From Betaproteobacteria bacterium Ga0077527 (GTDB taxonomy: Bacteria > Pseudomonadota > Gammaproteobacteria > Burkholderiales > SG8-41): a stretch of DNA of 64,000 bases. The DNA lies in the NCBI GenBank assembly GCA_001464815.1, contig LNDW01000021.1:8920-72919 (forward strand). Reading direction: 5' to 3'. The notes beneath the pieces were generated by a model. The model worked only from the letters and a program-made list of their open reading frames with translations. It did not search any database and had not been told where the DNA came from. How positions within the stretch are numbered: position 1 is the first letter of the stretch; the number at the start of each line of letters is the position of its first letter. Positions 14,132 to 34,329 of this stretch are shown here, one piece after another. Made by a program: the position numbers and the translations under genes.

Positions 14132-14794
14132 TTATCCCTCGCTTGTTGCGAATGAGCCATCGCCGCCGAGCAGGCCGCTCGCCTGCAGGCGCAGCCAGTC
14201 CTGCGGGCGGTCGATGTCCCACAGCGTTTCGAGTTCCTGCCAGCGCAGGCCGCAGTCGCGCAGGCGTGCGCGGGTTTGCGCGAGCACCTGATCGCCGCCC
14301 CAGCTGATGCTGCCGAACAGCCGCGGCTCATCACACGAGAGTCCGATCAGCACATAACCGCCATCCTCTGCCGGGAGCAGCACTGCATCGTTGCCAGCCT
14401 CCAGCTGCTTCGCAGCCGCAAGCAGATGCGCCGCGGTCAATGCCGGGCAATCGCTGCCGATGCACAACACGCGTGGTGCATCCTCCAGCGCCGAAGCAAA
14501 GGCGTGGGCGAGCCGGGCACCGAGATCTGCACCTTGCTGCACATGCAGGCTGGCGCTACAACGTGCCGCCGCGGCGATCAACTGCGGATGTGTTGCATCC
14601 GGTGCGCACCACAGTTGCAGCCGCGTTGGAGCCGCGGCGGCCGCGGTGTCGAGGGCATGGTTGAGCAGGCGCAGTTGCGCCGCTGCCGCACCTTCGGCAC
14701 CGAGCAGCGGTATCAGCCTGGTCTTGCTGGCGCCGGGCAGCGGTGCCCTGGCGAAGATCACCAGCGTGAAATCGCCGTGTTCAGCGGCGCGCAT
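14132..14794 (-). CDS. DUF2064/CofC-like transferase (rSAM/selenodomain-associated transferase 1 type)
   Basis: 220 aa. N-terminal VIFARAPLPGASKTRL nucleotidyl-transferase-like motif. Overlaps the upstream GT2 gene by 14 nt. Family assignment is from memory of TIGR04282 and from gene context. Confidence 0.7.
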   Translation of the reverse strand: MRAAEHGDFTLVIFARAPLPGASKTRLIPLLGAEGAAAAQLRLLNHALDTAAAAAPTRLQLWCAPDATHPQLIAAAARCSASLHVQQGADLGARLAHAFASALEDAPRVLCIGSDCPALTAAHLLAAAKQLEAGNDAVLLPAEDGGYVLIGLSCDEPRLFGSISWGGDQVLAQTRARLRDCGLRWQELETLWDIDRPQDWLRLQASGLLGGDGSFATSEG

Positions 14795-15461
14795 AACGTT
14801 GTGCCAGCAGCGCGGGGTCGGCGCCGCGCCAGTAGGCGTAACGCAGCTGCCACATCAGCATGATGGTGCGCCACAGGCCGTGGCGCTCCCAGCGCCGGCC
14901 GGAGGTGATGGCGCGATGGCTCAGGCACAGCGGCGCGCCATAGTGCTTGAGCTGCCGGCACAGCGCGATGTCCTCCATCAGCGGGATGTCGGCGAAGCGG
15001 CCTGCCGCCTCGAACAGGGAGCGGGTGACAAAGATCGCCTGATCGCCGGTGGCGATGCCGCTGAGCCGCGAGCGCCAGTTCATCATCACGGCGACCATGC
15101 CCAGCAGCGGATGACTGCCGCTGATCTGCACATCAAAACGGCCCCAGCTGCGGCGGCTGCGCGCCAGCCCGTCGCGGATCAGGCCGTCGGCACCTTCGGG
15201 CAGGCGGGTGTCGGCGTGAAGGAAGCACAGGATTTCCTTGCCGGACACCGCGGCGCCGGCATTCATCTGTCGGGCACGGCCGGCATCGGCAGGCAGCACT
15301 TTGTCGGCGAGCGGCCTGGCCAGCACCACCGTATCGTCACTGCTGCCGCCGTCGACGACGATGACCTCGCAGCCGCGCGCGCGTAATGGCGCGAGGGCTT
15401 CAAGCGCGGCGGTAATGCCTTCGGCCTCGTTCAGCGTCGGGACGATGAGGGACAGCGGCAT
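14781..15461 (-). CDS. Family-2 glycosyltransferase (rSAM/selenodomain-associated transferase 2 type)
   Basis: 226 aa with LIVPTLNEA…VIVVDGGSSDDT…, the GT-A DxD-type fold. Context matches TIGR04283-type genes. Confidence 0.75.
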   Translation of the reverse strand: MPLSLIVPTLNEAEGITAALEALAPLRARGCEVIVVDGGSSDDTVVLARPLADKVLPADAGRARQMNAGAAVSGKEILCFLHADTRLPEGADGLIRDGLARSRRSWGRFDVQISGSHPLLGMVAVMMNWRSRLSGIATGDQAIFVTRSLFEAAGRFADIPLMEDIALCRQLKHYGAPLCLSHRAITSGRRWERHGLWRTIMLMWQLRYAYWRGADPALLAQRYARR

Positions 15462-15467
15462 GCGGGA

Positions 15468-16298
15468 TCATTTTTTGATGTCATTCAGTGTCCAATCATA
15501 GTCGAGATGGCGCAGTGCGGCCTTGCCCGCGCGCAGGATGTTCTGCTGTTCGGCATTATCGGTAAGCAGGTTCGCGTAACGCCCGAACCACTGCTCGCGC
15601 GAGGTGACCGCGGGTGTCTTGCCGTCGAAACCGCGATAGCCACTCGTCCAGTCGACGCTGAACCACTTGAAGATTTCCGAGACTTCGAGGGTGTTGTCCT
15701 GTGCGTTGTAACGGTTGCGGCTGCGGTCCGACAGGAAGCGCCGGGTCTGTTCCTCGAGCTGGGCATCCAGGCGCGTGGCGACATAGGGCTCCTCGCGCAG
15801 CATCGGGCAGCCGACCGAGGCACAGTTCACCGCGAAGTGTACGCGCGGCTCGTCGTAGGCGCCCGGCTTGCGCAGCGTGTCGTGCTCGATGCCATCGAGA
15901 GAGAACTCGCGGCCGAACAGCGTGAAAAAACGGTCCTTGAACGGGTTGCCGAAGACCTTGCCGAAATCCCAGATCGACTTGATGTTCGGATGACGGGTCA
16001 GTATTTTTTCAATGGTGTAGGCGTTGTAGGCATTGATCAGGAAGGCCATCTGCTGCGGTTTGCTCCAGCCGTTGAACTCGGCCTGGCTGACCTTGGACAG
16101 CGTGGCGAGGTAGGCCCTGAGTTCAGCGCGGTCCTGGCTGAAGCCGGCGTAGCGGACCTGCGAGGATTTGCCGCCGTCGATAAGGACGACGTGTTTTTTG
16201 AGCAGGGCGGACCAGGCTTTGTGGTCGTGGTCGAAGGATTGGGCCAGGCCACCCGCCGGAAAAAACAGTATCAGTAGAGCTAATCCCAAGATTTTCAT
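15468..16298 (-). CDS. DUF547 domain protein (secreted)
   Basis: Signal peptide MKILGLALLILFFPAGGLAQ. …FLINAYNAYT…HFAVNCASVGCP… is the characteristic DUF547 core. Confidence 0.8.
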   Translation of the reverse strand: MKILGLALLILFFPAGGLAQSFDHDHKAWSALLKKHVVLIDGGKSSQVRYAGFSQDRAELRAYLATLSKVSQAEFNGWSKPQQMAFLINAYNAYTIEKILTRHPNIKSIWDFGKVFGNPFKDRFFTLFGREFSLDGIEHDTLRKPGAYDEPRVHFAVNCASVGCPMLREEPYVATRLDAQLEEQTRRFLSDRSRNRYNAQDNTLEVSEIFKWFSVDWTSGYRGFDGKTPAVTSREQWFGRYANLLTDNAEQQNILRAGKAALRHLDYDWTLNDIKK

Positions 16299-16319
16299 GA
16301 TTCTTTCCTTTGAAAGGCT

Positions 16320-16460
16320 TGTTGGCCGGGCGTAGCCCGGCGGCTAGTTACTTTCTCTTGCTTCGCCAAGAGAAAGTAACCAAAGAGAAGGCAACTCTGG
16401 CTCGCCGGTCCTTCGGACTCCCCTGCGCTGCTCAGCGGCTTACAAGGGGTTTAAATTCAA
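16320..16460. repeat. REP-like intergenic repeat element
   Basis: Hairpins gccggg-cgta-cccggc and a 14-bp stem gttactttctcttg/caagagaaagtaac (16347-16380). The sequence resembles a widespread proteobacterial intergenic repeat that yields spurious ORFs (…QEKVTKEKATL…). Confidence 0.6.
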
Positions 16461-16475
16461 AACCGGTGGCGCGAC

Positions 16476-18620
16476 TCATCCTCTTTGCCATGCGTGGAAT
16501 TTTTCCACCCATTCCAGCAATCGTTTCGGCGCATGCGCGCGCTTCCAGTTCCCCGCCACATATTTGTTCGCTTCCGCCAGCGTCGGGTAGATGTGGATGG
16601 TGCCAAGGATCTTGTTGAGGCCGATGCCGTGTTTCATGGCGCTGACAAATTCGGTAATCAGGTCGCCGGCGTGTTCGCCGGCGATGGTGGCGCCGAGGAT
16701 TTTGTCGCTGCCGGGCACGGTGAGTATTTTCACCAGGCCGTGGGCGTTGCCGTCGGCGATGGCGCGGTCGAGGTCGTCGATGCCGTAGGTGGTGATTTCG
16801 TGCGGGATGTTCTTTTCGCGGGCTTCAGTTTCGTTGAGGCCGACGCGCGCAACCTCGGGATCGGTGAAGGTGGCCCAGGGAATCACTGAAAAATCGGCGC
16901 GGAACTTCTTGAAGCCGCCGAACAGGCCGTTGACCGCCGCGTACCATGCGGTGTGCGCCGCGGTGTGGGTGAACTGGTATGGACCGGCAACATCACCGCA
17001 GGCGAGGATGTTGGGGTATTTGGTCTGCATGAACTCGTTGACTTCGACGGTGCGTGCCCTGGTCACCGGGATGCCGAGTTCCTCGAGGCCGTAGCCAGTG
17101 GTGTTGGCGATGCGGCCCACCGCGCAGAGCACGGCGTCGAAAGCGATGCGCAGCGCACCGCCAGCGTGGTCGCAGTAAAGCACCTTCTCACCATTTTCAA
17201 CGGCAAAGCGCTGCGCCTTGTGGCCGGTAAGCACGGTGATACCTTCGCTGCGGAATTTTTCCTCGACCATCGCCGAGATTTCAGGGTCTTCGCGCACCAT
17301 GACCCGCGGCAGCATCTCGACCTGGGTGACCTGTGCGCCGAGGCGTGCGAAGCACTGCGTCAATTCGCAGCCGATCGGGCCGCCGCCGAGCACCACCAGC
17401 CGCTTCGGCAGTGTGCGCAGGTCCCATACCGTGTCCGAGGTCAGCACGCCGACTTCGTCGATGCCGGGAATCGGCGGCACAAAGGGCCGCGCGCCGGTGG
17501 CAATGACAATGCCGCGCGTAGTCAGCGTTTTAGTCAGGCTCTGTTTGCCGGTGGCCGTGGTGATTTCAACAGACCATGGCGAAGTGATTTTGGCCTCGCC
17601 GCTGATGCACTCGACACCCAGCTGGCTGTAGCGCTCGACCGAGTCATGTGGCTCGATGTCGCGGATCACGCGCTGCACGCGTTCCATCACTTCGGCGAAA
17701 TCGAAGTCGACCTGCGTATCCTTCAGGCCGTAATGGCTGGCCTGCTTCATTGTCGCCACCAGTTTCGCCGACTTGATCAGCGCCTTCGATGGCACGCAGC
17801 CGGTGTTCAGGCAGTCGCCGCCCATCTTGTGCCGCTCGATCAGCGTCACCTTCGCCTTCACCGCGGCGGCAATGTAGGAGGACACCAGGCCGGCCGAGCC
17901 GGCGCCGATCACCACCAGGTTGCGGTCAAAGCGCGCCGGCCGGGTCCAGCCGGCGTAGACCTTGCGCGCCTTCAGCACATCCAGCACTTTTTTTGCGATC
18001 AGCGGAAACAGGCCTAGCAGCACAAAGGCGCCTATCAGTCCGGCACCGATCTTGAATGCGCCGAGCTGGGTGCCGGCATAGACATACACCGCGGTGCCGG
18101 CGAGCATGCCGAGCTGGCTCACCCAATAATAGGTCCAGGTGCGGATCGGGGTCAGCCCCATCAGCAGGTTGATCACAAAAAACGGAAACACCGGCACCAG
18201 CCGCAGGGCGAACAGGTAGAACGCCCCCTCCCGCGCCACGCCGTCATTGATCGATTTGAGTTTTTCGCCAAACCGGCCCTGCACCCAGTCACGCAGCAGA
18301 AAACGCGATGCAACAAAGGCGAGCGTGGCGCCGATGGTTGACGCAAACGACACGATCACCAGGCCCCAGAGCAGCCCGAAGATCGCGCCGGCGACCAGCG
18401 TCAGAATCGCGGCACCCGGCAGCGACAGCCCGGTGACGGCGACATAGATCGCGAAGAACAGCAGCGCCGCGCGCAGCGGATGCGCGGCGACCCCGGCCTC
18501 GATCGTGGCGCGCTGGGTCTGGAAATATTCCAGGGAAATGAAGCGCTGCAGATCGAGCGCGAAGAAGGTGATCACCGCGGTGACCACGATGATTCCCAGT
18601 AACATCTTGTTTTTATTCAT
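16476..18620 (-). CDS. TVP38/TMEM64 (DedA-like) membrane domain fused to a class-I FAD-dependent pyridine nucleotide-disulfide oxidoreductase
   Basis: Start MNKNKMLLGIIV…. The N-terminal ~230 aa are multi-TM. Then VVIGAGSAGLVSS, redox-active GGDCLNTGCVPSK, and a dimerisation domain. The track ORF extends 48 codons upstream without support. Confidence 0.85.
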   Translation of the reverse strand: MNKNKMLLGIIVVTAVITFFALDLQRFISLEYFQTQRATIEAGVAAHPLRAALLFFAIYVAVTGLSLPGAAILTLVAGAIFGLLWGLVIVSFASTIGATLAFVASRFLLRDWVQGRFGEKLKSINDGVAREGAFYLFALRLVPVFPFFVINLLMGLTPIRTWTYYWVSQLGMLAGTAVYVYAGTQLGAFKIGAGLIGAFVLLGLFPLIAKKVLDVLKARKVYAGWTRPARFDRNLVVIGAGSAGLVSSYIAAAVKAKVTLIERHKMGGDCLNTGCVPSKALIKSAKLVATMKQASHYGLKDTQVDFDFAEVMERVQRVIRDIEPHDSVERYSQLGVECISGEAKITSPWSVEITTATGKQSLTKTLTTRGIVIATGARPFVPPIPGIDEVGVLTSDTVWDLRTLPKRLVVLGGGPIGCELTQCFARLGAQVTQVEMLPRVMVREDPEISAMVEEKFRSEGITVLTGHKAQRFAVENGEKVLYCDHAGGALRIAFDAVLCAVGRIANTTGYGLEELGIPVTRARTVEVNEFMQTKYPNILACGDVAGPYQFTHTAAHTAWYAAVNGLFGGFKKFRADFSVIPWATFTDPEVARVGLNETEAREKNIPHEITTYGIDDLDRAIADGNAHGLVKILTVPGSDKILGATIAGEHAGDLITEFVSAMKHGIGLNKILGTIHIYPTLAEANKYVAGNWKRAHAPKRLLEWVEKFHAWQRG

Positions 18621-19615
18621 TATTTTTCCTGTGAGGCTTGGAGTGTTCGCAGCAGCATGCCGTTCACCGTGACGCCAGCGCCCATCGCGCGGTTCAGGCC
18701 GTAGCGCGGACCGTTGCGGATGCGCGCGCCATACGACAGTTCGGCGTCGCTGCCGGCCGGCCACTGCGTATCGAATTCTGTCTGCCAGGCAGCGCGGTCG
18801 TAGTGCAGCGGCAGTGCATCGACATGGATGCCGTCAATCACCGTGCCGTACAGCGCAGGCAGTGATGTCGCGGTGGTGGCGATGCGGGTGATCACGCCGA
18901 AGCCGGTGCCGGCGAAATTGGGCATGCCGGCGGCGCCGTTGTTGAACAGCGCGCAGTCGCGGCCATCGGCGCTGAAGCGCAGCGCAATCGGAAGACAGGT
19001 GTGGCTGCTGGCGATCACACGCGCGCGCGCGGCCACGCAGTGCGCGGCGAGGCGGCTGATGCCGGCGGCATCACGCAGCGCAGATTCGTCATAACTCCAG
19101 CCGGCCAGTGATTCGCAGTCGCCGTGCACGATGGCCACGCGCAGGCCGCCGACCTCGGCGACCAGCGTCATCGGCAGCGCGCCCAGCTTTTGGCGCAGCA
19201 CGCTCATGTCACTTGCCGTGCCGCGCAGCCGCGCGAGTATGGCGTTGGAGCGGCCGACTTCCGCCGCGCCAACTGATTCGGGATAACCGCAACCGCAACC
19301 CGCGGCATCATCGTCGCCGGCGAGTTCGGTTTCAACATTGCCGCGCAGCGCGTGGTGGCGCAATACACCGTCGTTGATGTCGACAAAGGCGCCGGCATCG
19401 ATGTTGAACCAGTTGAAGTCGCCGTTGAAGGCAAGGGTGGCGGGCGATGCTTCTTCGGCGGCCATGGTTTCGACGGCGCGCAGCGCAGGGCGGTTGCCGT
19501 AGAGGCCGCCGATCACATACAGCGTGTCGCTGACGATCTCCGGCGCGCGTGCGAGCGAAGTCGCCGCATAGCGGTAATGCAGCGGGCAGCTGCGACCGGG
19601 CTCATGGCTGTTCAT
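18620..19615 (-). CDS. Metallophosphoesterase-fold protein with degenerate metal-ligand motifs
   Basis: 331 aa with YVIGGLYGN / FNGDFN / RGNVE / IVHGD / SSHTC in the order of calcineurin-like motifs I-V, but with several ligand substitutions. TAATG junction with the downstream gene and ATGA junction with the upstream gene. Confidence 0.55.
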   Translation of the reverse strand: MNSHEPGRSCPLHYRYAATSLARAPEIVSDTLYVIGGLYGNRPALRAVETMAAEEASPATLAFNGDFNWFNIDAGAFVDINDGVLRHHALRGNVETELAGDDDAAGCGCGYPESVGAAEVGRSNAILARLRGTASDMSVLRQKLGALPMTLVAEVGGLRVAIVHGDCESLAGWSYDESALRDAAGISRLAAHCVAARARVIASSHTCLPIALRFSADGRDCALFNNGAAGMPNFAGTGFGVITRIATTATSLPALYGTVIDGIHVDALPLHYDRAAWQTEFDTQWPAGSDAELSYGARIRNGPRYGLNRAMGAGVTVNGMLLRTLQASQEK

Positions 19616-20997
19616 CGCGGGCCGCGCAGCCGCTGTAGCGCCAGCGGCAGCAGGAAGCCGGCGATGCAGATCAGCAGGCCGTAAAGATTGGTGCCAAGCA
19701 GCAGCGCGTATTTGCCGTCCCCGATCGCCCAGCTTTGCGGAATCTGTCCCGCGGCGAGCAACACACCGAGGATCACGCCGGGCCAGAAGGCGAGGTGGAA
19801 GCTCGATGGCGAATGTTTCACCAGCGGCGCCAGCAGGAAAATGGGTGCGAGGCCCATCACCATGGTGCCGCTGACCGTGGTGGCCTTGAGGATGTCAGTG
19901 CCGGCGATCATCGGCAGGTTGCCGAGCAGCGCGAAGGCGCACATGGTCCACATCCCAATGAGCATCGCCCGCGGGCCGGGTTTGCGGCCGGCCAGCATTG
20001 GCAGTTCCTGACCGATGGATTTCGCCACCGAGGAGAAAGTTGAATCGAGCGTGGAGCCCGCGGCCATGATCATCACCACCGTCATCAGCAGGTAGGGCAG
20101 CACGCCAAAGGCGCCGGCAACCGCGCCCGGCATGTTGTCACCGGCGGGCAGTCCTTCGAGCCTGGCATGTACGCCAACAAGGCTGAAGGCGAAGATGCAT
20201 GCAAAGCCCAGCACGCCGGCGGTGATCATCGCGCGCAGCATGGTTTTTTCGCGGGTGATGAATCCGCGGTCGGTCAGTACTGGATCGTGGAAGGGATAGG
20301 ACAGCACCTGCAGCAGCGCCACCAGGATCAGGTCGACGCCGGCGTTGAGGCGGAAGTCGCCGTCGGTGAGCAGTGTGCCGAGGCCGTGCTGCGGCAATAC
20401 CAGGAACAGCACCACGCCGAGGACCACCACGAACAGCACCGCCTGGATGACGTCAGTGAAGATCGAGCTGCGCAGCCCGCCCTTCAAGCTGTAGAACAGG
20501 GTGGCCGCGGTGAACAGCAGCGCCGAACCGATGAAAGTCCATTCCCCGGCCTTGCCGTAATAGGCGCCGACCACGGCGGTGTTGCTCCATACCTCGTTGT
20601 AGAGCCGGATCAGGATTGCCAGCGTGAAGGCCAGCGCGGCAAGCCGGCCGTAGCGCTGGATCAGGAAAGACACCATGCCGGTCGCGCCGTGTCGGGTGCG
20701 CAGCCAGTAGATGACCAGCCCTGCGACCGGAATCGACAGCCAGTAAGTGGCGTAAGCCAACCCGCCGACGACGCCCCAGGCCGCGCCGAGGTTTGCGGCG
20801 TTGGTCACCGACTTGGCGAAAATCCAGCTGATGAAGATGCTGCACATCAGCGCCCATTCGGTTGCGGGGCGCCCGGCATCGTCACTGCCGGTAAAAAAAC
20901 TGGCCTCGCTGCGCGCGTTGGGCGAGATCGCATACATCACCCCGCCGTAGAGCAGCAGGAAGCCCCAGAAGTAGATGGCGAAGGCCGGTTCGATCAT
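19612..20997 (-). CDS. Sodium:solute symporter (SSS) family transporter
   Basis: Start MIEPAFAIYFWGFLLLYGG…; ~12-13 TM helices; ATGA overlap with arsS. The track ORF is extended 74 codons upstream into arsS. Confidence 0.75.
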   Translation of the reverse strand: MIEPAFAIYFWGFLLLYGGVMYAISPNARSEASFFTGSDDAGRPATEWALMCSIFISWIFAKSVTNAANLGAAWGVVGGLAYATYWLSIPVAGLVIYWLRTRHGATGMVSFLIQRYGRLAALAFTLAILIRLYNEVWSNTAVVGAYYGKAGEWTFIGSALLFTAATLFYSLKGGLRSSIFTDVIQAVLFVVVLGVVLFLVLPQHGLGTLLTDGDFRLNAGVDLILVALLQVLSYPFHDPVLTDRGFITREKTMLRAMITAGVLGFACIFAFSLVGVHARLEGLPAGDNMPGAVAGAFGVLPYLLMTVVMIMAAGSTLDSTFSSVAKSIGQELPMLAGRKPGPRAMLIGMWTMCAFALLGNLPMIAGTDILKATTVSGTMVMGLAPIFLLAPLVKHSPSSFHLAFWPGVILGVLLAAGQIPQSWAIGDGKYALLLGTNLYGLLICIAGFLLPLALQRLRGPR

Positions 20998-21965
20998 GAT
21001 TCGTGCCCCAGCGCGCCGCCGCAGCTCGAGCCCTGGCCGGCGGTGCAGCCATAACAATGGTCCTTGACGACGATCGGATTGCCGTCGAGATCGGCGCCGA
21101 TCAGCTCGCGCAAATGCGTGCCTGGCCTGCCCTTCCACTCCAGGGGCAGGCCGAGCATCTGGTTGAAGTCGCAGTCGTACACGTAGCCCTGCCAGTCCAC
21201 CGACAGCAGCGAGCGGCACATCACGGTATCCAGGTTTTCGGGACGATAGGCGCTTTTGAGCAACTGCATATAGGGATCGAACTGGCCTTTGCTGACCAGC
21301 GTGCTGCCAAAGCGCTGGATCGGCATGTTGGCCAGCACATAGAGCTGGTTGAAGACGATGCCGTGGGCTGCACCGAGGCGCTGCTTGTAGTCCTGCTCGA
21401 GTTTTTGCTGGGCGGGCGGCAGCACCGGGCCCTGCGGGTTGTAGACCAGGTTGAGCACCAGCCCGGAGCCGGGTTTGCCGTAGCCGAGTGCGTTGAGGGT
21501 TTGCAGCGCGCGGATGCTGGCCTTGAACACGCCGTCGCCACGCTGGCGGTCAACGTTGTCTTCAAGGTAACAGGGCAGCGAGGCGGTGATCTCGACCTGC
21601 TGGGCGGCGAGGAATCCGGCGAGCCCTTCCTGTCCGGGCTCAAAAAGGATGGTCAGGTTGCAGCGGTCGATCACGCGCACGCCCAGCCGCCGCGCCGATT
21701 GGACCAGCAGGCGGAAATGCGGATTGAGTTCCGGCGCGCCGCCGGTGAGGTCGAGGGTTTTGATGGCCGCGGCCTTGAGAAAGGCAACGACTTCAAAAAT
21801 GGTGTCGCGCGCCATCAGCTCGGTGCGCGTGGGGCCGGCGTTGACGTGGCAGTGCAGGCAGCTCTGGTTGCATTTGTAGCCGAGGTTGGCCTGCAGCGTG
21901 TCCGGCGCGCGGCGGCGTAGCGCCGGAAAGTCACTTTGTTCAAGCAGGGGCAGCGTCGCGCGCAT
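20994..21965 (-). CDS. arsS: ArsS-type radical SAM / Cys-rich (selenodomain-type) protein
   Basis: 323 aa. CNQSCLHC radical-SAM cluster motif. C-terminal CYGCTAGQGSSCGG, which is the Cys version of the Sec-containing tail I recall for this family (TIGR04167). Confidence 0.8.
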   Translation of the reverse strand: MRATLPLLEQSDFPALRRRAPDTLQANLGYKCNQSCLHCHVNAGPTRTELMARDTIFEVVAFLKAAAIKTLDLTGGAPELNPHFRLLVQSARRLGVRVIDRCNLTILFEPGQEGLAGFLAAQQVEITASLPCYLEDNVDRQRGDGVFKASIRALQTLNALGYGKPGSGLVLNLVYNPQGPVLPPAQQKLEQDYKQRLGAAHGIVFNQLYVLANMPIQRFGSTLVSKGQFDPYMQLLKSAYRPENLDTVMCRSLLSVDWQGYVYDCDFNQMLGLPLEWKGRPGTHLRELIGADLDGNPIVVKDHCYGCTAGQGSSCGGALGHES

Positions 21966-22286: not shown

Positions 22287-22733
22287 ATGAAACCGTTCTG
22301 GATGCTGTTGCCGCTGCTGTCGATGCTGGCTGGACCTGTCAATGCCACCGACGGCATGATTGCCCTGAAAAGCCCGCACAACGTGAAGACCACGCTGGAC
22401 CGCTTCGAAGCCGCGGCGAAGGAGCGCGGGCTCAATGTGTTCTTGCGCGTTGACCACGCCGCCGGCGCGCTGAAGGTCGGCAAGACCCTGCGACCGACCG
22501 AGCTGCTGGTCTTCGGCAACCCCCAGGGCGGAACGCCGCTGATGGAATGCGCGCAGGGTGCCGGCATCGATCTGCCGCTGAAGGCGCTGGCCTGGCAGGA
22601 CGCGGCCGGACAGGTCTGGCTCGGGTACAACGATCCGGCTTATCTCGCGAAGCGTCACGCCGCCGCGGATTGTGCCGTGGTGCCCAGCCTGCAAAAGGCG
22701 CTGGCCGGCCTGGCCCAAGAGGCCGTGCGCTGA
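22287..22733 (+). CDS. DUF302 domain protein (periplasmic)
   Basis: 148 aa. Signal peptide MKPFWMLLPLLSMLAGPVNA. …LLVFGNPQGGTPLM…DLPLKALAWQD… is the DUF302 core. Confidence 0.8.
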   Translation: MKPFWMLLPLLSMLAGPVNATDGMIALKSPHNVKTTLDRFEAAAKERGLNVFLRVDHAAGALKVGKTLRPTELLVFGNPQGGTPLMECAQGAGIDLPLKALAWQDAAGQVWLGYNDPAYLAKRHAAADCAVVPSLQKALAGLAQEAVR

Positions 22734-23314
22734 TGGCACGGCCGCGTGAATTTGACGCTGATGCGGCACTTGGCAGCGCAATGCAGGCGTTCTGGGCCCG
22801 TGGTTACAGGGCGACCTCAATCGACGATCTGTGCGCGGCCACCGGGCTGAGCCGTTCCAGCCTGTACGCGGCCTACGGCGGCAAGCGCGCGCTGCTGCAC
22901 CTCGCGCTGGAGCGTTACGAGCAGGATGCGCTCAGGCGCATCCGCGCCGTGCTGGCGCAGCCGCTGCCGGTGCGCGAGGCCATCGCCGCGTTCATCGACG
23001 GCCAGATCGAGCGTATCGTCGCCGGCCCCGGGCGTGCCGGCTGCTTCATCGGCAACTGCGCCGCGGAATTGTCCGGCGACCGCGCCACCGCGGCGCGGGT
23101 GCGGCGCAGCCTTGCCAGCATCGAGGCGGCGTTCAGCGAGGGCCTCGCCCGTGCGCGGGTGAATGGCGAGATCGCCGCCGACGCGGACATCGCATCACTG
23201 GCACGGTTTCTGGTGTCCGGTATCCAGGGGCTGCGGCTGGTGGGCAAGGCCAATCCCGACCGTGTAGTGCTGGGCGACATTGCCTCTGTAATGCTGCGCT
23301 GTCTCGACCGCTGA
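22733..23314 (+). CDS. TetR/AcrR family transcriptional regulator
   Basis: Start MARPREFDADAAL…; HTH …GYRATSIDDLCAATGLSRSSLYAAYGGKRAL; TGATG overlap with the DUF302 gene. Confidence 0.88.
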   Translation: MARPREFDADAALGSAMQAFWARGYRATSIDDLCAATGLSRSSLYAAYGGKRALLHLALERYEQDALRRIRAVLAQPLPVREAIAAFIDGQIERIVAGPGRAGCFIGNCAAELSGDRATAARVRRSLASIEAAFSEGLARARVNGEIAADADIASLARFLVSGIQGLRLVGKANPDRVVLGDIASVMLRCLDR

Positions 23315-23347
23315 GACTGCAACCGATCCATGACAACAGGAGGACTC

Positions 23348-23959
23348 ATGCAAAACCGAAAACCCGATCCGCGGCTCGCACCGTTGCCGCAGGAAACCAC
23401 GCCTGAGCTCGCCGGCGCTTTTCAGACCTATGTGCGCGTGCTTGGTTTTGTGCCGAACAGCGTGCTGATCATGCAGCGCAAGCCGAAGCTGGTGCAGGCC
23501 CTGTCACAACTCGCCGCCGCGACCTGGGATCCGCAGAGCGAGGTGCCGATCGCGTTCAAGCGCATGCTCGCCCATGTCGCGAGCCGCGCCCACGGCTGCC
23601 ATTACTGAATGGCGCACACGGCCGGGGCGGCGCTCGGGCTGGGTTATGACGATAAAAAGCTGGAAGCGGTATGGGAGTTCCGCAGTAATCCGTTGTTCAC
23701 GGACGCGGAGCGCGCGGCGCTGGAAGTGGCCATCGCGGCGGCGGCGCAGCCAAACGCGGTGACCGACGAGATGTTCGCTGAACTGAAAAAGCACTGGAGC
23801 GAAGGCCAGATTGTCGAGATCGTCGGCGTGGTTTCGATGTTCGGCTTCATGAACCGCTGGAACGACACGATGGCGACGCCACTGGAGGAGGAGCCGGTCC
23901 ACGTCGGCGAGAAGCATCTCGCAAAAAGCGGTTGGAACGTGGGCAAGCACCAGCGTTGA
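23348..23959 (+). CDS. AhpD/carboxymuconolactone-decarboxylase-like peroxidase-related protein, candidate selenoprotein (in-frame TGA at 23606-23608)
   Basis: AGGAGG RBS 5 nt before ATG 23348. ORFs 23330..23608 and 23609..23959 are contiguous in one frame. Read-through gives …ASRAHGCHY-U-MAHTAG…, which puts the TGA at the second Cys of the AhpD-type CxxC motif. Confidence 0.6.
23620..23640 (+). promoter_or_regulatory. Possible SECIS-like hairpin (weak) for TGA 23606
   Basis: Begins 11 nt after the TGA. GGCCGGG/CUCGG(G)CU forms a ~7-bp stem with one bulge and G:U pairs, loop GCGGCG. Imperfect. Confidence 0.3.
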
Positions 23960-23980
23960 AACCCCAAGAAAGGATTGAAC

Positions 23981-25198
23981 ATGGCCCGATTGTCTGATTT
24001 TTCGGAAGCTGAAAAAAAACACCACCTCGACAAGATCCTCGATTTTCCGGATTTCGGCGAGACGCCCATTGCGGAAGGTCCGGCGCTGGCGCAGCGCCGG
24101 GTGGCGATTATCACCACCGCCGGCCTGCATCTGCGTAATGACCGGCCGTTTGACGGCGGCGCCGCCGATTACCGGGTGATTCCCGGCGATGCGCCGGCCG
24201 CGGACCTGGTGATGAGCCATGTCTCGGTGAACTTCGACCGCACCGGTTTCCAGGAAGACCTCAATGTGGTGTTTCCGCTGGACCGCCTGCGCGAGCTGGC
24301 GGACGAAGGCATGGTTGGCGCCGTGGCTGACATCCATTACTCGTTCATGGGGGCGACGCAGATGCGCGCGCTGGAGGCCAAGGCGCGTGAACTGGCCGGG
24401 CTGCTGAAAAAAGACCGTGTCGATGCGGTGCTGCTCAGTCCGGTCTGACCGAACTGCACGTGCGCCGTGGGCGCACTCGGTCATTACCTGGAACGCGAAG
24501 GCATTCCCACCGCGCAGATCAGCCTGATCCGCGAACAAACCGCGGCGATTCGGCCGCCACGCGCGCTGTGGGTGCCGTTCATGCTGGGCCGCCCCTTTGG
24601 CGTGCCGGGTGATGCCGCTTTCCAGCGCCGCGTGCTGGTGGCGCTGTTGTCGCTGTTCGAACGCAAAGCGGGTCCGCTGCTCGAGGATTACGCTGAAGAC
24701 GCGCCCGCGGAATCGCTGGACGCCGGCGGCTTTGCCTGCCCGGTGAGTTTTGCCGGCAGTGCCGCGGCGGATCGCGGGCTGGCCGAAGCGCTGAGGGATG
24801 AGGTGAGGCAGCTCGCGTCGTGGCACGGACTGGCTTTGCGCCGGCGTGGCCGCAGTACGGTCGGCGTGTTCGGCCCCACGGTGGATGCCGCCGTGGAGCA
24901 TGTGGTTTCATTTCTTGATCAGCATCCGCAGACGCCGCCGGTTGAGGGCATGACCGCTGGCACCGCGATCAAACGCGCCTGCGACGATCTCAGGGCCTAT
25001 TACTTCGAGGCGGCCGCGGCGCAGCCGGGAAATCTGTCTTCGGCGGCAATCGATCGCTGGTTCTGGAGCGACACCGCCGCTGCGCGAGCGTTGTTTGCGA
25101 TTCGCGATATCTGCCTGGGCAGCAGCGATCCTTCGCTCAGGCCGCTGGGCAAGCTCAGCCTGATTCCGCGAGCGGTGGCGGAGGGCCGGCCACGCTAA
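23981..25198 (+). CDS. Glycine/sarcosine/betaine/D-proline reductase selenoprotein-B (GrdB/PrdB) family homologue, candidate selenoprotein (in-frame TGA at 24446-24448)
   Basis: ORFs 23975..24448 and 24467..25198 share a frame. Read-through gives …VDAVLLSPV-U-PNCTCAVGALGHYLEREGIPTAQISLI…, which parallels the GrdB motif …TST-U-GTCTRCGA…ERAGIP… as I recall it. Confidence 0.72.
24460..24476 (+). promoter_or_regulatory. SECIS-like stem-loop for TGA 24446
   Basis: 17-nt hairpin GUGCGC-CGUGG-GCGCAC (perfect 6-bp stem, GU in the loop) starting exactly 11 nt after the UGA. This is the geometry of the minimal E. coli fdhF SECIS. Confidence 0.6.
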
Positions 25199-25308
25199 AT
25201 CTGCAGCCTGAATCAGCGGGCGCGCCGTGCCGGCTCCGGCGCGCCTGACATTGACCGCAAGCCCCTGATTGCGTTACATTTCTGCTCCTTTTCGCGGGGT
25301 TCACCGGC

Positions 25309-32512: not shown

Positions 32513-33856
32513 TCAGGTCAGTAAAGTCCACGCGGCGCCTACAACGGCACACACCCCGATCACCGGCATGATGCCCACCTTGTAGCGCCACAGCGCGACA
32601 AAGGCGGCGATGCCGATCACCGCCGAAGGCCAGTCGAAGCGGCCCTGCAGGCCTTCGGGCCACAGCACGTGGTAGGCGAAAAACACTGCAAGGTTGAGAA
32701 TCACGCCGACCACGGCGGCGGTGATGCCGGTGAGCGGGGCGGTGAATTTGAGTTCGCCGTGGGTGGTCTCGACCAGAGGGCCGCCGAGCAGGATGAAAAT
32801 GAAGCTGGGCAGGAAGGTGAACCAGGTCACCACCGCGGCGGCGAGCGCGCCGGCCGCGACCAGCCGGTCAGTACCGAGGAATTCGGTGGTCCAGCCGCCG
32901 ACGAAACCGACGAAGGCCACCACCATGATCAGCGGGCCCGGCGTGGTTTCGCCCAGCGCGAGGCCGTCGATCATCTGGTGGGGCGTCACCCACTGGAAGT
33001 GCTCCACCGCGGCCTGGTAGACATAGGGCAGCACGGCGTAGGCGCCGCCGAAGGTAAGCAACGCAGCTTTGGTGAAAAACCAGCCCATCTGGCGCAGCGT
33101 GCTGTCCCAGCCGAAGCTGGCGACGATGATCGCCATGCCCGTGGCCCACAGCGCGAGGCCGAAGGCAAGCACGCGGTAGAAGCGGCCCCAGGAGAAACGC
33201 GCATGTTCGGGCGTCGGCGTGTCGTCGTCGATCACCGCCGGGCCGTAGTCCTTGTCCGCCGCGCCATGTCCGCCGCCCATCTCGAACAGCTTCGGCCGCA
33301 GCCGGCCGCCGATCCAGCCGGCAATGCCGGCGCCGATGACGATCAGCGGGAACGGCAAATCCAGCGCGAACAGGCCGATGAAGGCTGCCGCGGCAAAACC
33401 CCACAACACGCCGTTTTTCAGCGCGCGTGAACCGATGCGGATGGCGGCAAAGACCACGATGGCGGTCACCGCGGGCTTGATGCCGTAGAGGATGCCGGCG
33501 ATGGCGGGCACGTCGCCCCAGGCCATGTAGATCCACGTCAGCGCGATCAGGATGAACAGCGAGGGCAGCACAAACAGCCCGCCGGCGACGATGCCGCCCC
33601 AGGTGCGGTGCATCAGCCAGCCGATGTAGGTGGCCAGTTGCTGCGCCTCGGGGCCGGGCAGCACCATGCAGTAGTTGAGCGCATGCAGAAAGCGGCGCTC
33701 GGAGATCCAGCGCCTTTTCTCCACCAGCTCCTGGTGCATGATCGAAATCTGCCCCGCAGGGCCGCCGAAGCTGATGAAGCCGAGTTTGAGCCAGAAGCGG
33801 AAGGCTTCGGCGAAGGAGATGCTGCGTGTTTCGCCTTCCGGTGCGGCTGCGCTCAT
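32513..33856 (-). CDS. chrA: Chromate efflux transporter ChrA
   Basis: 447 aa. …FRFWLKLGFISFGGPAGQISIMHQELVEKRRWISERRFLHALNYCMVLPGPEA… and a duplicated CHR domain. Confidence 0.9.
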   Translation of the reverse strand: MSAAAPEGETRSISFAEAFRFWLKLGFISFGGPAGQISIMHQELVEKRRWISERRFLHALNYCMVLPGPEAQQLATYIGWLMHRTWGGIVAGGLFVLPSLFILIALTWIYMAWGDVPAIAGILYGIKPAVTAIVVFAAIRIGSRALKNGVLWGFAAAAFIGLFALDLPFPLIVIGAGIAGWIGGRLRPKLFEMGGGHGAADKDYGPAVIDDDTPTPEHARFSWGRFYRVLAFGLALWATGMAIIVASFGWDSTLRQMGWFFTKAALLTFGGAYAVLPYVYQAAVEHFQWVTPHQMIDGLALGETTPGPLIMVVAFVGFVGGWTTEFLGTDRLVAAGALAAAVVTWFTFLPSFIFILLGGPLVETTHGELKFTAPLTGITAAVVGVILNLAVFFAYHVLWPEGLQGRFDWPSAVIGIAAFVALWRYKVGIMPVIGVCAVVGAAWTLLT

Positions 33857-34188
33857 CGCGGTTCCCCGCTGCGGGCTTCGATTGCGCCACCTGTGGCACG
33901 CCAGGCCTCAAGGCCGCCCTCCAGGAACCGTGCCTGCAGGCCCTGCGCGCGCAGCGCGGCGGCGGCGTTCTGGCTGACCTGGTGGCCGTGCACGCAATAC
34001 ACCACCACCGGTGTATCGCGCGGCAGGGCCGGGCCCCAGGCGGCGACGGCTTCGGGGTCGCGGCGCATAGCGCCGGCAATGCGGTCAGGGGCGACGACAT
34101 ACACGGCCTCGCGCCTCACATCGATGACCAGCGGGGCGGGGTCTTGCCGGCGGAGGGTGGAAAGTTGCTCAGGGGTGATGTGGTCCAT
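33853..34188 (-). CDS. Single-domain rhodanese-like protein (chrA-associated)
   Basis: Start MDHITPEQLSTL…. Active-site loop VVYCVHGHQVSQ. The stop overlaps the chrA start (ATGA). Confidence 0.75.
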   Translation of the reverse strand: MDHITPEQLSTLRRQDPAPLVIDVRREAVYVVAPDRIAGAMRRDPEAVAAWGPALPRDTPVVVYCVHGHQVSQNAAAALRAQGLQARFLEGGLEAWRATGGAIEARSGEPR

Positions 34189-34329
34189 GCCGGCTCCTTC
34201 GCGATGGCGAATACACACGAAGGCAGTGCTTGGACGCGGGGCGTCTGAGCCGGGGAGCCTGCCGATATCCCCGTGAAACAACAACGATTCTGCGTTACGG
34301 GTTATGCCGCGTCAATGCCGCAGACGGGA

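Follow-up and report, generated by a model that had tools for sequence, protein, structure and literature searches.

Does an in-frame TGA in the middle of a conserved redox motif end a short gene, or does it specify selenocysteine (Sec, U) within a longer one? The question is raised by a 64,000-nucleotide stretch of DNA from Betaproteobacteria bacterium Ga0077527 (contig LNDW01000021.1, positions 8,920 to 72,919 of the forward strand; hereafter the window), in which a TGA at 23606-23608 separates two open reading frames (ORFs) that, read through as one, resemble proteins of the AhpD/CMD family. As judged from sequence comparison, positions 23348-23959 very probably form a single gene for a selenoprotein of the AhpD fold, with C84-x-x-U87 as its redox centre and with Sec inserted by means of a hairpin at 23621-23639, a candidate selenocysteine insertion sequence (SECIS). 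The elements of this prediction are the following.

23348..23959, + strand: predicted AhpD/CMD-fold selenoprotein gene, complete, 203 codons and a stop (M1...C84-H85-Y86-U87-M88-A89-H90...R203, TGA stop).
23338..23343, + strand: Shine-Dalgarno sequence AGGAGG, 4 nt 5' of ATG 23348, read directly from the sequence.
23597..23617, + strand: predicted redox motif C84-H-Y-U87-M-A-H90 (CxxU..H), which aligns to GCxYCMAHT in 120/120 best homologues.
23606..23608, + strand: in-frame UGA, the proposed Sec codon of U87, at the same column in 99 gene copies and with a coding signature 3' of it.
23621..23639, + strand: SECIS-like hairpin with an 8-pair stem and the 3-nt loop GGC, 12 nt after the UGA, proposed on a comparative basis.

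An earlier note on this DNA had stated that ORFs 23330..23608 and 23609..23959 abut in one frame and that a strong AGGAGG precedes the ATG at 23348 while none precedes the ATG at 23609. The ORF listing and the translation confirm the former, and both start signals are as described when the sequence is inspected. Translation of 23348-23959 yields ...VASRAHGCHY*MAHTAGAAL..., in which the TGA at 23606-23608 (residue 87) is the sole internal stop, and the terminal stop is a second TGA at 23957-23959. The ATG at 23348 is also the start chosen by gene callers for the 86-aa N-terminal piece on identical metagenome contigs. Nine contigs, drawn from several metagenome assemblies of activated carbon and drinking water, encode the exact 116-aa downstream piece; as the split and the neighbouring genes are identical on them, the TGA is no sequencing or assembly error. 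ORF pairs joined by a TGA are typical of high-GC DNA, and a scan of the whole window returned 129 of them, mostly spurious; a redox-motif context is found at only two, those at 23606 and 24446.

For the family search, U was replaced by C. The protein then matches Pfam CMD (PF02627) over residues 46-128 with 34.9 bits against a gathering threshold of 23, and among NCBIfam models TIGR01926 (peroxidase-related enzyme) matches best, with 65.6 bits. Of the 6,076 relatives retrieved in a protein search, the best 120 are full-length (197-221 aa, 64-82% identical to the window protein), and a Cys stands opposite the TGA in every one of them, within the motif G-C-x-Y-C-[MQI]-A-H-T, whose residues C, Y, C, A, H and T do not vary in alignment A2. 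Cys homologues carry the IMG label 'uncharacterized peroxidase-related enzyme'. A sequence search of the PDB placed the tetrabromopyrrole debrominase Bmp8 nearest (6OHI, E=3e-28), followed by AhpD-like 'peroxidase-related' proteins. The fold was judged by proxy: the protein modelled with AlphaFold is P0001, which at 82% identity is the nearest Cys homologue, and not the window protein itself. This model is all-alpha and of high confidence, with a predicted local distance difference test score (pLDDT) of 92.1 and a predicted template modelling score (pTM) of 0.88, and in Foldseek comparisons its template modelling (TM) scores are 0.79-0.88 to Bmp8 (36-37% identity) and 0.7-0.8 to AhpD-like structures. 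Helix 86-98 of the model holds the second Cys position in its first turn, and the loop leading into this helix holds the first Cys; placed on the model, C84-H-Y-U87-M-A-H90 shows the arrangement of CxxC followed by His at a helix N-terminus. Thus, both the AhpD/CMD-like family and the replacement of the second Cys of CxxC by the TGA (CxxU), which the earlier note had read from the letters, are borne out by the Pfam match, by the AhpD fold of the modelled homologue and by the 120 aligned Cys residues.

The same TGA recurs well beyond this contig. One genome per GTDB species was scanned with the pattern GGNTGYNNNTAYTGAATGGCNCAYAC, which has 18 fixed and 3 two-fold positions; by our own arithmetic, about two chance matches to it are expected in 596 Gb over both strands, and 66 loci were found. 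All 66 are true homologues with protein conserved on either side of the TGA, and all come from metagenome-assembled genomes (MAGs), mostly titled Burkholderiales or Betaproteobacteria and in a few cases Bordetella, Streptomyces or 'bacterium'. A further 24 TGA forms, together with 31 TGC/TGT forms, came from a protein-guided scan of metagenomes. In all, 99 gene copies at more than 90 loci (about 86 distinct sequences) have the TGA in this column, and 31 copies have TGC or TGT there.

The stretch that follows the TGA has the properties of a gene. Of the 93 tails that the fetched DNA covers to their end, 79 have 116 codons and the others 114-134. Among 70 distinct genes, nucleotide diversity 3' of the TGA is 0.165, 0.134 and 0.451 at the first, second and third codon positions, and codon changes in the tail relative to the window gene are predominantly synonymous (synonymous to non-synonymous ratios of, for example, 34:4, 33:6 and 23:5). 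Conservation among 83 distinct TGA forms is 73% after the TGA versus 66% before it. Such a pattern of substitution is that of a coding sequence, and the 116-codon tail evolves as one. Orthologues that end at the TGA or carry unrelated residues there, which the earlier note had named as refuting its reading, did not turn up: the tails are conserved and the Cys is aligned.

Since the hairpin of the window is by itself thermodynamically not significant, the case for a SECIS is a comparative one. The hairpin can be written GCCGGGGC-GGC-GCUCGGGC, with one G.G mismatch and a weak 2-pair extension to 23619-23641. Across 72 distinct TGA forms, an 8-pair stem beginning 12 nt after the UGA has 95.5% of its cells paired, as compared to 30-60% when the register is slid, and compensatory changes are found in three stem pairs (C-G to U-A, C-G to G-C and G-C to U-G). 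One Gly codon pairs through its third base with a U; GGG or GGA is used there in 71 of 72 TGA forms but in only 4 of 20 Cys forms (p=2e-13). Similarly, the Leu codon is CTC or CTT in all 72 TGA forms versus 6 of 15 Cys forms (p=1e-8), and the median hairpin energy is -15.3 kcal/mol in TGA forms versus -7.4 kcal/mol in Cys forms (p=8e-15). The loops seen in TGA forms are GGC or GUC, and a hairpin loop that starts with G agrees with bacterial SECIS elements as published, which have a small apical loop containing G. Taken together, the codon choices and energies indicate that the stem constrains synonymous codons in TGA forms only and that the hairpin is specific to these forms.

Several observations weigh against reading this TGA as a Sec codon. 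The imperfect G-rich hairpin that the earlier note had described after the UGA is present at 23621-23639, and that note's view that the SECIS evidence is weak in this single sequence was sound: folding gives z=-0.28, that is, the window hairpin is not stabler than shuffled sequence, and it is the comparison over the 72 distinct TGA forms that rescues the case. The p-values given for the hairpin overstate independence because the compared sequences are phylogenetically related. Part of the hairpin's conservation is due to the peptide TAGAALRLG, as the hairpin lies inside coding sequence, and the G.G mismatch in the window stem results from an Arg (CGG) to Gly (GGG) change, which is common to at least 16 distinct TGA-form sequences of the window's clade. 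Rfam searches gave no relevant match to the AhpD-like hairpin, either at gathering thresholds over the window or at E<=10 over 23300-25300; we know of no general bacterial SECIS model in Rfam, and this null result is therefore uninformative. The curated cut-off of TIGR01926 (81.8 bits) is not reached by the AhpD-like protein, and only about 2 of 38 close Cys homologues come to roughly this level. Finally, searches of the 64-kb window and the fetched loci revealed none of selA, selB, selC and selD. ARAGORN detected no tRNA-Sec in the window or any of the loci, a probe with the E. coli SelD sequence had no match in the window or loci, and Pfam found no SelA, SelB or SelD among 28 window ORFs. 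As only a small part of any genome is covered, the missing sel genes are uninformative either way.

If the locus were a pseudogene, the TGA would be a nonsense mutation of TGC or TGT and the downstream ORF a decaying remnant. A single base change turns either codon into TGA, and public annotation does treat the locus as two ORFs. However, about 86 distinct sequences, which come from dozens of species-level MAGs, share this TGA and have tails that vary mainly at third positions and are more conserved than the part before the TGA, and a nonsense mutation leaves the hairpin specific to TGA forms unexplained. Because the tail recurs, stays at about 116 codons and evolves as coding sequence, we exclude a pseudogene as having next to no chance of being right. 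It is also conceivable that translation terminates and reinitiates at UGAAUG, giving polypeptides of 86 and 116 aa that assemble an AhpD-like fold without the second Cys. Stop-start coupling is common in bacteria, and AUG directly follows the UGA in 97 of the 99 TGA forms. This AUG is nevertheless explained by the protein sequence, since Cys forms conserve the Met just as well (CMAHT), and in the other two TGA forms it is replaced by ACG. Moreover, no Shine-Dalgarno sequence precedes 23609, the break falls exactly on the redox residue, and in the adjacent PrdB-like gene described below an in-frame TGA precedes CCN, which is no start codon, yet the tail is conserved. Reinitiation is thus a very improbable account of the locus.

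A further possibility is read-through without Sec. A tRNA(Cys)-like suppressor with a UCA anticodon would then place Cys at the UGA, or near-cognate decoding would place Trp there, and an ordinary CxxC or CxxW protein would result. The lack of Sec machinery in the window and the fetched loci, themselves a small part of any genome, is in keeping with this, and in some bacteria unusual tRNAs reportedly insert Cys at Sec UGA codons. On the other hand, the position and size of the hairpin and its small loop containing G are as described for SelB-dependent SECIS elements, and two adjacent genes carry TGA where the known AhpD-like and PrdB families carry Sec. Of 70 of these genes, 56 also end in TGA, which thus serves as a regular stop and is not reassigned in these genomes. 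In addition, the Sec-decoding trait has been reported to be common among sequenced Betaproteobacteria. With these observations in view, non-Sec read-through is improbable, and one gene for an AhpD-fold selenoprotein, a predicted thiol-selenol oxidoreductase of 203 residues, is the reading that we favor.

For such a selenoprotein gene, a plausible course of events can be outlined. When the ribosome reaches the UGA at 23606-23608, the hairpin 12 nt downstream would act as a bacterial SECIS and recruit SelB-GTP-Sec-tRNA(Sec), whereupon Sec would be inserted instead of termination. In the protein, C84 would be situated in the loop before the helix and U87 in the helix's first turn, as modelled on the 82%-identical Cys homologue, and the C84/U87 pair may cycle between a selenol/thiol state and an Se-S bond. 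U87 could be the attacking nucleophile, the role that Cys133 has in Mycobacterium tuberculosis AhpD. The AhpD-like and PrdB-like selenoproteins may in turn work as a redox pair, a suggestion based on gene order, as the AhpD-like gene sits between a TetR gene and a PrdB/GrdB-like gene with a UxxCxC motif both here and in about one third of related loci.

At least 11 switches between Sec and Cys at this position were counted on a crude tree built by the unweighted pair group method with arithmetic mean (UPGMA) on p-distances, which makes the count a rough one. The residue that follows the first Cys goes with the Sec/Cys state: it is His (CHYU) in 48 of 86 distinct Sec forms, whereas CHYC is found in 1 of about 150 Cys forms, and the Cys forms of the L005-L150 and P0001-P0120 set are mostly CQYC or CRYC. 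Two Cys forms, L089 (TGC at 796) and L092 (TGC at 1458), are nested among Sec forms and keep the hairpin save for one synonymous CTC-to-CTG change, with hairpin energies of -14.1 and -12.0 kcal/mol, respectively. These look like recent Sec-to-Cys conversions with a decaying SECIS. Some MAGs contain tandem TGA-form paralogues, two per MAG (L013, L016, L042 and L061, with L045 from the MAG of L016), and the MAG SG8_41 has three TGA-form copies on two contigs.

Selenoproteins of this type have been recorded before, as the earlier note had mentioned with reference to selenoproteome surveys and as the literature affirms. A 2005 study of the Sargasso Sea predicted AhpD-like CxxU selenoproteins (27 sequences; Zhang, Fomenko & Gladyshev, PMC1088965), and the 2008 Global Ocean Sampling (GOS) survey distinguished AhpD-like 1 (COG2128, 299 sequences) from AhpD-like 2 (PF02627, 70 sequences) (Zhang & Gladyshev, PMC2398784). 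A 2026 review places AhpD-like selenoproteins under TIGR01926 and PF02627 (PMC13188914). The predicted protein shares with the AhpD-like selenoprotein family (COG2128/TIGR01926) its superfamily, the CxxU motif with Sec for the second Cys, abundant Cys homologues and a SECIS-like hairpin directly after the UGA. That family was defined in marine datasets, whereas the loci considered here are MAGs mostly titled Burkholderiales or Betaproteobacteria, the comparison with the published marine sequences being one by description. As the AhpD-like CxxU family has been known since 2005, the finding amounts to a new clade of a known family. Two further AhpD-related families in which Sec forms are recognised, NF053654 (YciW-related (seleno)protein) and NF041238 (AhpD_rel_CFYUT), were considered and rejected, their weak matches of 52.6 versus 310 bits and 23.3 versus 175 bits being far below the cut-offs.

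Among solved structures the closest is that of Bmp8 from Pseudoalteromonas (6OHI/6OHJ), which has the motif G-C-x-Y-C-x-x-H in common with the window protein. Catalysis by Bmp8 has been proposed to involve oxidation of its cysteines to a disulfide, in a cysteine-based reductive dehalogenation. Bmp8 is, however, a Cys protein encoded in a bromopyrrole biosynthetic cluster, and no halogenase or bmp genes are near the window gene; at 36-37%, the identity is too low for substrate specificity to be transferred. The likeness to M. tuberculosis AhpD lies in the all-alpha AhpD fold and in the CxxC...H active site at a helix N-terminus. The His follows the second Cys by four residues in that protein but follows the second Cys or Sec by three in Bmp8 and the window protein, and sequence identity to solved AhpD proteins is about 17-25%. 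No gene for ahpC or a peroxiredoxin (AhpC-TSA, Prx) was found among the called genes within +/-10 kb, which differs from an AhpC reductant of the M. tuberculosis AhpD type.

The two genes that flank the predicted selenoprotein gene deserve attention.

22733..23314, + strand: TetR-family regulator gene, directly 5' of the AhpD-like gene and upstream in 31 of the 81 TGA-form loci with room for it.
23981..25198, + strand: PrdB/GrdB-like gene of 405 codons, with an in-frame TGA at 24446-24448 (SPV-U-PNCTC) and a hairpin at 24460-24476.

The PrdB/GrdB-like protein matches Pfam GRDB, with scores far below the cut-offs for NCBIfam PrdB and GrdB, and bears a C-terminal extension of about 180 aa without family assignment; a sequence search of the PDB found no relative. 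Its TGA is kept in 32 of 32 related loci, and a GUGCGCC-GUG-GGCGCAC hairpin (7 bp, 3-nt loop) is conserved 11 nt after it. Because the PrdB-like gene has its own conserved TGA and hairpin, two adjacent genes depend on the same recoding. PrdB homologues are a known, abundant selenoprotein family, and among adjacent selenoprotein genes the literature names the pairs Prx/SelW, Prx/Prx-like 2 and Prx-like/AhpD-like. A PrdB-like gene follows directly in 22 of the 66 TGA-form loci that extend far enough versus 1 of 19 Cys-form loci, and it is likely the operon partner of the AhpD-like gene.

This pairing recalls the GrdA/GrdB proteins of Stickland reductases, in that a small CxxU gene stands next to a GRDB-family UxxC gene, as in grdA-grdB operons. 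GrdA, however, has the GrdA fold, whereas the CxxU protein here has that of AhpD, and no PrdA, GrdC, GrdD or GrdE genes are nearby (called genes within +/-10 kb); the likeness to GrdA-GrdB is one that we only infer, by analogy. It is a tentative and rather unlikely extension of these ideas that Burkholderiales of fresh and drinking water possess a two-selenoprotein reductase module under TetR control, in which the AhpD-like protein would take GrdA's role or, like Bmp8, would carry out a reductive dehalogenation, in this case selenol-based.

The genes around the AhpD-like gene in the window are TetR, DUF302, PrdB-like, xseB, ispA-like and dxs genes and an arsenosugar cluster. At the locus of P0001 (L151/L152), the nearest Cys form, the same xseB stands beside the gene, a pair of an extracytoplasmic function (ECF) sigma factor and an NrsF anti-sigma factor takes the place of TetR, and there is no PrdB-like gene; judged from this locus, the Sec state and the PrdB-like partner appear to have been lost together. 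In TGA forms that have no PrdB-like gene, the neighbours, assessed by eye, look like housekeeping genes (UvrA-like, ABC-F ATPase) or antisense artefacts. A domain fusion was considered for the L022 copy, which has a long in-frame upstream stretch, and was dismissed, as the stretch is Arg/Pro-rich by eye.

What goes somewhat beyond the literature is a clade that falls under the NCBIfam cut-offs, its annotation as two ORFs, its operon with a PrdB-like gene and the His after the first Cys in Sec forms. The TetR / AhpD-like(U) / PrdB-like(U) operon is itself mildly new. In GenBank and IMG records, taken here from the clusters of P0121 and P0136, the N-terminal half (86-87 aa) is a 'hypothetical protein' (e.g., MBX9903016.1, MBY0265322.1 and MGE0559461.1), and the C-terminal half (116 aa) is a 'carboxymuconolactone decarboxylase family protein' (MGE0559462.1) or an 'alkylhydroperoxidase family enzyme'. 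No NCBIfam model captures the clade above its cut-off. Owing to this and to the split annotation, at least 66 species-level MAGs contain a predicted selenoprotein that has gone unrecognised. In 2006, the formate dehydrogenase FdhA was the sole selenoprotein known in Betaproteobacteria, and the prediction would extend the selenoproteome of this group beyond that enzyme. The natural series of Sec and Cys forms, which includes Cys forms with a nearly intact hairpin, should be useful for the study of how a SECIS arises and decays inside a coding sequence, and the recurrent pairing with the PrdB-like gene offers a testable handle on the function, outside clostridia, of two environmentally abundant selenoprotein families.

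A few other features of the window may be recorded. The DUF302 gene at 22287-22733 (+ strand), 5' of TetR, matches profile positions 141-246 of 270 in an NCBIfam model named fluoride efflux transporter CrcB, with 121 bits versus a cut-off of 312; the model presumably describes a fusion protein. Positions 14132-21965 (- strand), closely upstream of the two predicted selenoprotein genes, hold an arsenosugar-type cluster. This encodes an ArsS radical SAM '(seleno)protein' (TIGR04167, 455 bits), which is a Cys form here, as well as TIGR04283 and TIGR04282 glycosyltransferases, a DUF547 protein, a fusion of a VTT domain with a pyridine-nucleotide-disulfide oxidoreductase (762 aa) and two unassigned ORFs. 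Finally, an Rfam chrB-b RNA motif is located at 34223-34273 (- strand; 56.8 bits, E=5e-9), 5' of a gene pair for a rhodanese and a chromate transporter (~32513-34190, - strand).

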